From the NCBI GenBank assembly GCA_000165345.1, contig CM000433.1, forward strand, positions 384,001 through 448,000: a stretch of 64,000 nt of DNA. The letters are read 5' to 3'. Below the pieces are notes generated by a model. The model was not told the origin of the DNA and searched no databases. It saw only the letters and a list, made by a program, of their open reading frames with translations. Below are positions 21,352-24,300 of this stretch, piece by piece. How positions within the stretch are numbered: the stretch's first letter is position 1; every line of letters starts with the position of its first letter. The position numbers and the translations under genes were made by a program.

Positions 21352-24300
21352 TTACCATCCGAAACCCGAGAACCAGCTAGATTCTTGCCCTCCTGATGGG
21401 GTAGGAGGGGGAGCAGGTGGGGTAGGTTCAGATTGCCCACCTAGCCACCCCCCAAACCATGAAGAATCCTCTGCAGTTTGTGGGGTCGGACTTGGTGTTG
21501 GATTTGAAGGATTTGGAATTTGAAGATTGTTTGTACTAGGATTATTTTGCGTTGGGTTTTCTGTTATGGTTGGGGTAGGAGGAGGAGCGGGAGTTGTTTC
21601 GGATGCCCCAAACCAACCACTAAACCACGAGGACTCCTCTGCAGGAGGTGGAGGTGAAGGTGGAGGTGGACTTGAAGCCAAATTTTCCTTAGCATCTGTA
21701 GGAACTTTTGTTGGCTCTGGGTTTATTGTAGCTGTTGGAGTTGGAGGAGGAGCAGGGGTTGTTTCAGATGCCCCAAACCAACCACTAAACCATGAAGACT
21801 CCTCTGCAGGTGGCTGAGGCTGAGGTTGAGGTTGAGATGTAGGTTGAATCTGAGATGATTGGGGTATAGGTGGACTCGAAGGGGTAGAATCTTTCTTAGG
21901 AGCTTCTTTAGGATTTTTTCTGGGCTTTGGATTTGCTGTTGCAGTTGGAGTTGGGGGAGGAGCAGGGGTTGTTTCAGATGCCCCAAACCAACCACTAAAC
22001 CATGAAGACTCCTCTGCAGGTGGCTGAGGTTGAGGTGGAGTTGAACTTTCCTTGGGAATATCTGTAGGAGTTTTCGTTGGCTCTGGATTTATTGTAGCTG
22101 TTGGAGTTGGAGGAGGAGCAGGGGTTGTTTCAGATGCCCCAAACCAACCACTAAACCATGAAGACTCCTCTGCAGGTGGCTGAGGTTGAGGTGGAGTTGA
22201 ACTTTCCTTGGGAATATCTGTAGGAGTTTTCGTTGGCTCTGGATTTATTGTAGCTGTTGGAGTTGGAGGAGGAGCAGGGGTTGTTTCAGATGCCCCAAAC
22301 CAACCACTAAACCATGAAGACTCTTCTACAGTTGGTTGAGTAGGCTCAGGAGCAGGGGAAATTTTGATGGAAGGAAGCTCATTTATGGGTTTTACAGTAG
22401 CTATATTTTGTTGATTCACTTTGCTTTTTACGGAACTTTTTTTTTTTGCTCCAACATTTTTCATTGCAGGTCTTTCTTTTAAATCGTTTACTTTTGCTGG
22501 TTCCGTGGTTCCACCAAACCAACTACTAAACCAAGATGACTCTTCTACAGGTGCTGGAGTAGGAGGAGGCGGAGGTGGTTGTTCATTTTCTTGTCCAAAC
22601 CCATTCTCTACTATGGTTTGAGTGTTTGCTGAATTATCTATAGGCTCTAAAGGGGGAGGAGGCGACCACTTTGGTTTATCTTTCGGTCTTAAAGTTGGGG
22701 TTGGTGGAGGAGGAGGAGGAGGAGAGCTTTCTGCTCCAATCCCGAACCAACCAGTAAACCAGGAAGTTTCTTGCGCAGGAACAGCTGAGGAAGATGTTTG
22801 AGGTGAATTTTCATGTTCTCTGTTGCCTTCGTTATTAGCTTTTGGAGGTAGTTTGTTTGAAGCCTTCCTCTTTAATTTTTGCTGATTATTTTTAGTTATA
22901 TTTTTTTGTGTTGTCTTTGCTGTTTTAATCTTTGCTTTTGGATTTTCTGGAGTAGTTGAATATCCAAACCAGCCCCAAAATGAGCTTTCCTGTTCGTTTG
23001 TTTCGCATTCCGCCTCTGGTACTGGTCCTTCATCTTTGTTGTAGTTTTCCTCTATTTCCTTTTCTATTTCCAGGTTGTTTTTTTGTGTTGATACATCCTG
23101 ATCTGAAAAATCAATGAAGCTATTTAAATCTATGCTTTCGTCGTCATTCGAAGTTGCTTTAGTGGCTCTTGCATCCGACTTTGAGCTATTATAATATTTT
23201 GTATTGTTTGACTTATTATCAACATAATAACCTTGAGCAAGAGGTGGAGGAGGGGAATTTGCTTGTTTTGCTTTTGGCGAAGAATTGCTATTGACAGCTG
23301 ATTTTTTAATTTGAATCTGATCGTAATTTGCAACTTTTTTATCTAAAGTTTCTTGATTAAAAGTATTATCTTTTTCGATTGGACTAATGTCTTCTTGAAT
23401 TTCATTAGCAGATGAATTATTTCCAAACCAGCTTGAAAACCAGGAGCTGCTTTGATTTTTTGTATCTGACTGCTGTTTTGATGACTTTAAAATCGTTTTC
23501 TTTACCATTTTCAAACTTCCTTGTCGATTTGGATCAAAATTTTCTGCACTATTGTTTGTCTTAGAAATATTTGGGATACTTCTTCTTCCTTTGGCAATTC
23601 TTTGCCCATTCTTTGAACATCTCCTCGTAGTTTGAGTGTTAATTATTCTATCAAATTCATCTTTCCTAATTTTGTCAAGATCTAGTTTCATTCGCATCAT
23701 ATTTCTATGTATTATTGCTCTTTCTAAGCCATTAGATGGAAGCCTCAAGATTTCGTAAAGTCTGCTCACCTTTCTATTTTCTGTGTATTTATTTGTCTCT
23801 AACTCTGAAAAATCAATATTTTTTTCTTGTTCATTGTTATTAGAACATGGTAAATTTTCTTTGATTTTTTGAGGCTTAGTTTTACTAGCCTCTATATTTT
23901 GTGACAAGAGCTTGTTTGTATCTAATAATATATCCTTTAATATTGAGATATCATTTGGTTCAATTGAAAGATTGCAATTCTGAGCATTAGAACTCATATC
24001 TTGCCTTGGAACTCTATCTATCACGCCATATTCTCTCAAAATTGTTTCTATTTGATCTTTTAACAATGCGAAATCATTTGAACAATATATATTATTACTG
24101 TTGCTATTCGCTTTTTCCGAATTTTGTTCATATTTCATATTTTTTGAAAAAGTATTGTTTGCCTCGTTTCTTTCATTTTTTAATTCCATTTTTTTTGATT
24201 TGCTTCTATGACATTTTTTGTAGTGTTTATATTTGTCTTTATGTTTACTCATGTGATTATGCTTGCAACTGGATTTTCTATGTTTCTTTTCCAATTTTGA

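Follow-up and report, generated by a model that had tools for sequence, protein, structure and literature searches.

Many large 'low complexity' hypothetical proteins form much of the unexplained proteome of Cryptosporidium, and one of them, cgd5_1940, raises the question of what an array of closely similar tryptophan- and phenylalanine-containing motifs might do at the end of a very long polypeptide. The gene lies in a 64,000-nucleotide stretch of the forward strand of GenBank assembly GCA_000165345.1 (contig CM000433.1, positions 384,001 to 448,000; hereafter the window, to which all coordinates refer), which is part of chromosome 5 of Cryptosporidium parvum Iowa II. Its coding sequence (CDS) for a hypothetical protein of 2511 amino acids (aa) occupies 21352..28887 on the minus strand, as do all other features of the gene given below. 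The open reading frame (ORF) had been noted in a first-pass annotation of the DNA, and its translation proved 100% identical to EAK88070.1 of C. parvum Iowa II, annotated as a 'large low complexity protein with predicted coiled coil regions'. The same 2511-residue sequence is found under four accessions, among them CPATCC_002198, whose locus-tag prefix we take to denote a long-read-based assembly. We infer that the gene is cgd5_1940 because gene order and the size of an indel agree (522 nt, equal to 174 aa): a 2015 re-annotation described the cgd5_1940 CDS of C. hominis UdeA01 as shorter than that of C. parvum Iowa by a 522-nt deletion (PMC4637869).

The gene and this one indel were already known from databases and the literature. 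The motif, the bipartite module built on it, its genus-wide architecture and a bacterial counterpart are newly described here, and no prior description of them was found in Pfam, the PDB or the literature. Our preferred reading, held tentatively, is that the last ∼700 residues of cgd5_1940 serve as a multivalent array on which a folded partner docks. Multivalent arrays of aromatic motifs in disordered regions are a well-known kind of element, and the one described here does not constitute a new category.

A patterned aromatic array in a disordered tail

The C-terminal array region (aa 1813-2511, 21355..23451) contains 11 sites with the consensus [DE][DE]SSWFSGWFG, together with all 12 PPP runs of the protein, which fall within aa 1879-2495. 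The first-pass annotation had proposed at least ten invariant copies of the motif; the number holds, with 11 sites, but the invariance does not, since only five are exact copies of EESSWFSGWFGASETTPAPPPTPT (first Trp at aa 2192, 2244, 2296, 2366, and 2421) and six are variants. Site 1 (SSSWFSSWFG, aa 1813-1822, 23422..23451) is positionally orthologous in all 11 orthologues, site 2 (ESSFWGWFGY, aa 1967-1976, 22960..22989) is an FWxWF variant kept across species, and site 3 (ETSWFTGWFG, aa 2040-2049, 22741..22770) is followed by a PPPPPPP run; these three are the diverged copies (SSSWFSSWFG, ESSFWGWFG, and ETSWFTGWFG) that had been picked out from the sequence at the start. Site 4 (ESSWFSSWFG) lies at aa 2116-2125 (22513..22542). 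The five exact ESSWFSGWFG sites come next, each followed by ASETTPAPPPTPT: site 5 at aa 2189-2198 (22294..22323), site 6 at aa 2241-2250 (22138..22167), site 7 at aa 2293-2302 (21982..22011), site 8 at aa 2363-2372 (21772..21801), and site 9 at aa 2418-2427 (21607..21636). Site 10 (DSSWFGGWLG, aa 2474-2483, 21439..21468) is a W..WL variant kept across species, and site 11 (ESSWFSGFGW, aa 2502-2511, 21355..21384) is the C-terminus of the protein itself, a position that it holds in 10 of 11 aligned orthologues.

The concentration of tryptophan in these sites is striking, with 22 of the 25 Trp residues of the protein lying within them (aa 1816-2511). Measured from start to start, sites are 52-70 aa apart in the centre of the array and 73-154 aa apart upstream, and the final two gaps measure 56 and 28 aa. 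At seven sites a PPP run starts 13-16 residues past the first Trp, as in SETTPAPPPTPT, and the conserved unit is therefore bipartite, consisting of an aromatic cluster and a PPP run; in its 25-residue form the module reads PPAEESSWFSGWFGASETTPAPPPTPT. When the C-terminal 711 aa were shuffled, at least one strict W[FL]xxW[FLM] match arose in 44 of 20 000 sequences and never more than one, compared with nine in the real sequence, which shows that the array is not due to chance.

At the DNA level, the tandem repeats proposed in the first-pass annotation were recovered as a 156-nt family of five copies, spaced 165, 210, 156, and 156 nt apart, and a 69-nt motif core is present in eight copies at 21433-22803. 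Tandem Repeats Finder reports only one stretch, at 21905-22340, in which the 156-nt unit is repeated 2.8 times with 94% matches. All repeat units and indels of the array are multiples of 3, and no competing long overlapping ORF was found when one was looked for in the array region. Among diverged copies, Ser codons switch between AGC and TCN with the amino acid unchanged; selection therefore acts on the peptide. The G + C content is 0.375-0.379 over window positions 20001-24000, which carry the repeat-bearing 3′ part of the gene, compared with 0.276-0.280 over 24001-28000, a rise that is due to the Pro, Gly, and Ala codons of the array. The N-terminal 1800 aa of the protein are rich in Lys, Asn, Ser, and Glu (14% Lys).

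The array is set in a disordered, Pro/Thr-rich chain, as had been supposed at first reading. AlphaFold2, supplied with orthologue alignments, gave a mean predicted local distance difference test (pLDDT) score of 46.7 for aa 2100-2511, practically without secondary structure, and of 46.2 for aa 1290-1815, with only isolated helices. A folded repeat domain was considered and ruled out on the grounds that no fold is predicted for aa 2100-2511. Pfam gave no match to the whole protein, the tail, or the N-terminal 200 aa, a profile search of PDB sequences with the motif returned none, and a literature search for motif strings found nothing, all of which agrees with the initial view that the motif belongs to no described domain. 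The tail is 18-24% Pro, and aa 2100-2511 contain 24% Pro, 12.6% Ser, and 12.1% Thr.

Within this region, where pLDDT is below 50, the S-W-F-S-G-W-F-G pattern occurs 11 times, in the manner of LARKS- or FG-like low-complexity segments. With FG-nucleoporins and LARKS the array shares short aromatic and Gly/Ser motifs, repeated in a disordered chain in variable copy number. It differs from them in that its motif is Trp-based and strictly patterned and its spacers are Pro-rich and 28-154 aa long. FG-nucleoporins have dozens of FG repeats with short hydrophilic spacers and a domain for nuclear-pore anchoring. The protein has just 14 FG dipeptides, 12 of them in the tail, and no nuclear-pore anchoring domain was detected by Pfam, so an early suggestion of FG-nucleoporin-like repeats does not stand.

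Evolution and copy number within the genus

Orthologues were found in C. hominis, C. tyzzeri, C. meleagridis, chipmunk genotype I, C. canis, C. felis, an unnamed Logan assembly, C. ryanae, and C. xiaoi, the most distant of them at 31% identity. They were recovered solely from intestinal species of Cryptosporidium, and none was recovered from the gastric species C. muris and C. andersoni. At least ten species, represented by 12 sequences, have the reading frame intact. Compared with C. hominis, the ratio of nonsynonymous to synonymous substitution rates (dN/dS) of cgd5_1940 is 0.33 overall, ranges from 0.16 to 0.44 along the gene, and is 0.16 in the last 150 residues.

These observations bear on whether the array is a translated and correctly assembled feature, or one end of a secreted protein. 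The tail has the Pro/Thr/Ser-rich composition seen in Cryptosporidium mucins, which is compatible with a secreted mucin-like glycoprotein, and the shortest versions of the array, with 8 sites, could be short-read collapses, as would be expected if the region were an artefact of assembly or annotation (repeat collapse or expansion, or untranslated sequence). Against this, the protein lacks both a signal peptide and a transmembrane segment (the maximum Kyte-Doolittle mean over 19 residues is 0.88, and the N-terminal 30 aa average −0.21), a result that also removes the mucin-like element floated in the first-pass annotation. Moreover, the sequence is identical under all four accessions, 2511 open codons are very unlikely to occur by chance at ∼30% G + C, the frame is kept across species with units and indels in multiples of 3, and the overall dN/dS points to constraint; a mucin or an artefact is thus extremely improbable.

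Orthologues have 9-14 sites each, and two assemblies, one of C. parvum and one of C. hominis, have 8. The spacing of the first four and the last two sites is preserved (∼154, 73, 76, 73 ... 56, 28 aa) in all species except C. ryanae and C. xiaoi, and each of these outer sites retains its own variant from species to species; site 2, for example, is always FW[GS]W[FI]G. Across 11 orthologues, conservation is 0.84-0.95 at motif positions compared with 0.58-0.79 in the flanks. Retention of variants site by site, together with these islands of conservation, is the behaviour of individually constrained short linear motifs, in line with what had been suggested from the single sequence. The Ser that precedes the first Trp and both Trp residues do not vary among 64 distinct site sequences; C. 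ryanae and C. xiaoi have F or L in place of W at some sites.

The C-terminus ...SSWFSGFGW is shared by 10 of 11 aligned orthologues, and the C. meleagridis sequence, which continues beyond it, is probably mis-assembled. That sequence (P0004) ends in ...SGFGCIDVSKYDRDN and not in ...SGFGW, and one of its central units, at aa 2230-2260, reads ...EGHPKQPLLHLQLQQLHGWFGASE. Both anomalies look like local frameshifts or assembly errors within the repeat, and they call for caution with short-read assemblies of the cgd5_1940 locus.

Variation in copy number is confined to the central block. Units 8-11 of C. canis have a similarity of 0.73-0.84 within the species compared with 0.52-0.59 between species, and units 6-7 of C. 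meleagridis 0.95 compared with 0.76, so the central block expands and is homogenized lineage by lineage. The first-pass annotation had anticipated recent expansion or concerted evolution, and also that repeat number would vary between isolates; the former applies to the central units, with the outer sites orthologous, and the latter is borne out by differences between assemblies (see also PMC4637869). A second C. parvum sequence, KAL5368624.1, lacks a 522-nt segment (21805..22326, aa 2188-2361) comprising three repeat units, removed as a single clean deletion; its alignment to the 2511-aa protein contains a single gap of 174 aa, the size of the deletion reported in C. hominis UdeA01. Two C. 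hominis assemblies differ from each other only by an equivalent clean three-unit deletion, of 154 aa. These three-unit differences in length may be real alleles or short-read collapses.

Counterparts in bacterial BamD tails

A 31-column profile of the module, compared with 1.84 billion representative proteins at a threshold of E ≤ 0.001, gave nine matches: six Cryptosporidium orthologues, two bacterial BamD/YfiO lipoproteins with long C-terminal tails, and one protein of 147 aa. The BamD tails had first come to light through a 98-aa bacterial ORF, P0013, which was matched by an artificial sequence of concatenated motif variants. A genome scan with one of the BamD matches identified 80 loci, nearly all labelled as uncultured gut or rumen Alphaproteobacteria or proteobacteria, with a few carrying other bin labels such as Bacteroidaceae. 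Among 81 BamD ORFs, 37 have a tail of at least 60 aa, 34 have at least one W-motif, and 26 have at least three. In metagenome-assembled genomes of gut and rumen Alphaproteobacteria these disordered C-terminal tails are 60-370 aa long with up to 8 motif copies, in the forms [KS][SG]WFSGWFG[GS][DS] and SSWF[SG]WFKSD and in SWFSSWFG and SWFGGWFG variants. Examples among loci L002-L081 are L003:2998-4425, L012:2986-4632, and L051:2953-4872. No Pfam model covers the BamD tail, and no published description of such motif tails was found.

Two further sequences deserve mention. On a 165-kb alphaproteobacterial contig (L001), with the gene order lpxC-bamD-recN, the BamD ORF (8974-10020) has three motifs in its tail, and P0013 (10001-10297), which overlaps it in another frame, has three more; a frameshift or a sequencing error has probably divided a single tail between the two. 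The 147-aa protein (P0018), from a 2.2 kb metagenome contig in ENA, has a hydrophobic N-terminus, probably a signal peptide, and a single copy of EESSWFGGWFGQEKE near its C-terminus.

Similarity between the parasite protein and the BamD tails is limited to the octapeptide. In both, an identical or near-identical core, present one to eight times in the bacteria, is repeated in a disordered tail, with acidic residues flanking it. The BamD tails differ in that they are periplasmic, are joined to a folded TPR domain, lack the PPP element, and have linkers rich in Glu, Lys, and Ala, compared with the Pro/Thr linkers of cgd5_1940. Since there is no similarity outside the motif, the shared octapeptide is, as judged from the sequences, apparently a case of convergence and not of homology; the AGY codon that its internal Ser has in common is accounted for by the one-step interchange of Ser and Gly. 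Horizontal transfer between bacteria and the parasite, both of which live in the gut, was considered, and no positive evidence for it was found, the octapeptide being all that is similar. This bacterial parallel was the least expected result of the analysis.

A motif that is its own partner would be the easiest explanation for a recurrence of this kind. The WF octapeptides could be homotypic aromatic stickers through which many protein copies are cross-linked as a gel or condensate, with Glu and Pro on the flanks and the Pro/Thr spacers acting as solubilizing gatekeepers. Such a cohesive sticker-and-spacer scaffold would suit aromatics that alternate with Gly/Ser and are acid-flanked in parasite and bacteria alike, a fully disordered array region, a copy number free to change between 8 and 14 sites, and the tolerance of F or L in place of W. 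It is harder to square with the outer sites, which hold strict positional orthology, spacing, and site-specific variants throughout the genus where generic stickers usually drift; with the fixed distance from WF to PPP and the conserved free C-terminal copy, which suggest directional recognition; or with the restriction of the array to one Cryptosporidium and one bacterial family, since generic cohesive motifs normally spread to many proteins. Overall, we regard cohesion of this type as possible but doubtful, though it comes nearest in likelihood to the docking array that we prefer. A wider form of the idea, that SWFSGWFG is an autonomous module without a lineage-specific receptor, self-cohesive or surface-active, which arose independently (or, less likely, was exchanged) in a cytosolic protein of the parasite and in BamD tails, seems to us rather unlikely.

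The only obvious ligand common to cytosol and periplasm is a membrane, and BamD is itself a membrane-anchored lipoprotein. The Trp/Phe clusters might therefore partition weakly into the bilayer interface and bind by avidity, in which case the bacterial tail would touch the inner leaflet of the outer membrane. For the SWFSGWFG core, the interfacial free energy on the Wimley-White scale is favourable, at −5.7 kcal/mol, but with the conserved acidic flanks the sum is about +0.8 kcal/mol, and there are no basic residues for anionic cytosolic leaflets. A helical hydrophobic moment of just 0.17 and the lack of any predicted helix speak against an amphipathic helix of the ALPS (amphipathic lipid packing sensor) type; such helices have 20-40 residues and a polar face of Ser, Thr, and Gly, the core has 8 residues, and AlphaFold2 places no helix at the sites, so this candidate was rejected. 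Interfacial anchoring in general appears improbable.

Possible partners, gene context, and significance

The docking reading would assign a part to each element of the module. Each of the 11 modules would present an eight-residue aromatic cluster, S-W-F-[SGT]-[GS]-W-F-G, anchored by two Trp residues four apart with acidic residues upstream; seven would add the PPP run at its fixed offset of 13-16 residues, and stiff Pro/Thr-rich spacers would keep the modules apart. Avidity for a folded partner, which would itself be multimeric or lattice-forming, would then come from numerous weak contacts that the Trp/Phe clusters, and possibly PPP too, make with its hydrophobic pockets. We count in favour of docking the individually conserved outer sites, the invariant Ser and Trp residues, the free C-terminal copy, the fixed PPP offset, the acidic flanks, and the constraint apparent in dN/dS across the gene.

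As to the partner, the leading specific guess, and a weak one, is that cgd5_1940 might be a vesicle-coat tether or scaffold, because its sites match the consensus for delta-COP's mu-homology domain (MHD) and PPP runs are ligands of Sec23. Known delta-COP ligands (ELM class LIG_deltaCOP1_diTrp_1; the Dsl1 'lasso', Gcs1/ArfGAP1) resemble the array in having W and then, within 1-6 residues, W or F, the whole set in an unstructured stretch close to acidic residues, and in having one instance at the extreme C-terminus; the C-terminal WxxF of yeast Gcs1 reportedly binds delta-COP. Their motifs, however, number one to a few and sit in very acidic loops, and the proteins that bear them have folded domains, whereas cgd5_1940 has 11 Gly/Ser-embedded WFxxWF clusters, Pro/Thr spacers, and no detectable fold, and shares its motif with bacteria that have no COPI. 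Judged by pattern, this tryptophan motif class of the delta-COP MHD, Wx(1-6)[WF] (PMC7145657, PMC4868844), appears to be the sole published receptor consensus that the sites match literally. The pattern [DE]x(0-3)Wx(1-6)[WF], a short and unspecific expression, fits 10 of 11 sites in a disordered region.

The PPP runs point in a similar direction. In Sec31, TANGO1, cTAGE5, and Sec16, PPP motifs within disordered regions bind the gelsolin domain of Sec23 (PMC7594496), and these scaffolds share with cgd5_1940 a long disordered Pro-rich region, many PPP runs (12 in cgd5_1940), Trp-containing contact elements, and a multivalent, weak, partly redundant logic. In contrast, Pfam detects in cgd5_1940 none of their domains (the Sec16 central conserved domain, the WD40/ACE1 of Sec31, or the SH3/TM of TANGO1), the W/N element of Sec31 is single and not arrayed, and the WF cluster is without counterpart in COPII scaffolds. 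Two other types of Trp-based ligand do not fit, as Pex5-type motifs are WxxxF/Y where the sites have W-x3-W, and the canonical LC3-interacting region (LIR) is at odds with the Gly at its position +3.

Several observations weigh against docking, or against a coat as the partner. Octapeptide arrays occur in periplasmic BamD tails, where no eukaryotic coat protein exists; this recurrence argues against a partner found in eukaryotes alone and favours an intrinsic, partner-independent property. The tolerance of F or L for W in C. ryanae and C. xiaoi is looser than would be expected of a strict Trp-pocket ligand, the existence of assemblies with 8 to 14 sites indicates that exact valency is not critical, and the delta-COP expression discriminates poorly for the reason given above. 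The literature on cgd5_1940 yielded nothing beyond the one indel (PMC4637869).

The rest of the protein offers few further clues. Its best-conserved non-repeat part is aa 1-200 (28288..28887), which has invariant PQEPEL (aa 63-68) and NQIKNRML (aa 84-91) segments and no Pfam domain. Other invariant islands in a variable background include MKLDLD, ILKSSKQQS, ATKATSN, and QQKLKRK. Two more lie close together within aa 1462-1523 (window 24319-24504), where CxCHxCxxH...DPITxHI and PKHYHKHYH are invariant in all aligned orthologues and no Pfam model matches. The CxCHxCxxH island (aa 1462-1470, 24478..24504) may be a small metal-binding knuckle or element, perhaps together with PKHYHKHYH (aa 1515-1523, 24319..24345).

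Both acidic activation domains and GW182-type W-motifs are built on a grammar of W/F clusters together with acidic residues. The sites could thus be nuclear acidic-aromatic motifs, of the activation-domain or CCR4-NOT W-motif type, on a nuclear or RNA-regulatory scaffold, and the Lys-rich N-terminal 1800 aa with the QQKLKRK and CxCHxCxxH islands would fit a nuclear protein. The Ago hook of GW182/TNRC6 and the CCR4-NOT W-motifs also resemble the array in having Gly/Ser-flanked Trp in disordered regions and in their multivalent use. However, each Trp of the array is next to a Phe and the two Trp of a site stand just four residues apart, whereas the Trp of GW182 is flanked by small residues only; no DNA- or RNA-binding domain was detected by Pfam; and a periplasmic occurrence in bacteria does not fit. 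The Ago-hook interpretation put forward in the first-pass annotation falls with the finding that Argonaute and Dicer genes are not detectable in Cryptosporidium (PMC9465071). A nuclear role of this kind is, on balance, very unlikely, and docking on a folded partner is still the reading that we prefer.

Neighbouring ORFs in the window encode TCP-1, enolase, RIO kinase, an Rce1-like protease, Gpi1, Las1, and ESF1; cgd5_1940 itself is flanked by the Rce1-like/enolase genes on one side and by a downstream ORF of 312 aa on the other. A second giant ORF, at 52753-59124 on the minus strand, encodes a 2123-aa DDX60-like helicase with PIN-like_DDX60, DEAD, and Helicase_C domains. An M60/enhancin-like peptidase is split across two minus-strand ORFs, 36359-38695 and 35572-36366; the 46-nt sequence at their junction (36342-36387, minus strand) has canonical GTAAGT...TTTTTAG ends and is therefore a short intron and not a frameshift. 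The adjoining 885-aa ORF (32895-35552) may be part of the same gene.

For Cryptosporidium, a sharply defined, genus-conserved array provides a concrete experimental handle on cgd5_1940. Its central units of 156-210 nt are a candidate minisatellite marker for C. parvum and C. hominis, provided that short-read collapse is excluded. If the octapeptide is autonomous, two domains of life would be using one simple and portable aromatic module, which would establish a new class of cross-domain motif, an 'aromatic clasp' of disordered regions. If, instead, the idea of a coat-binding scaffold is correct, cgd5_1940 would be a parasite-specific organizer of a reduced secretory pathway.

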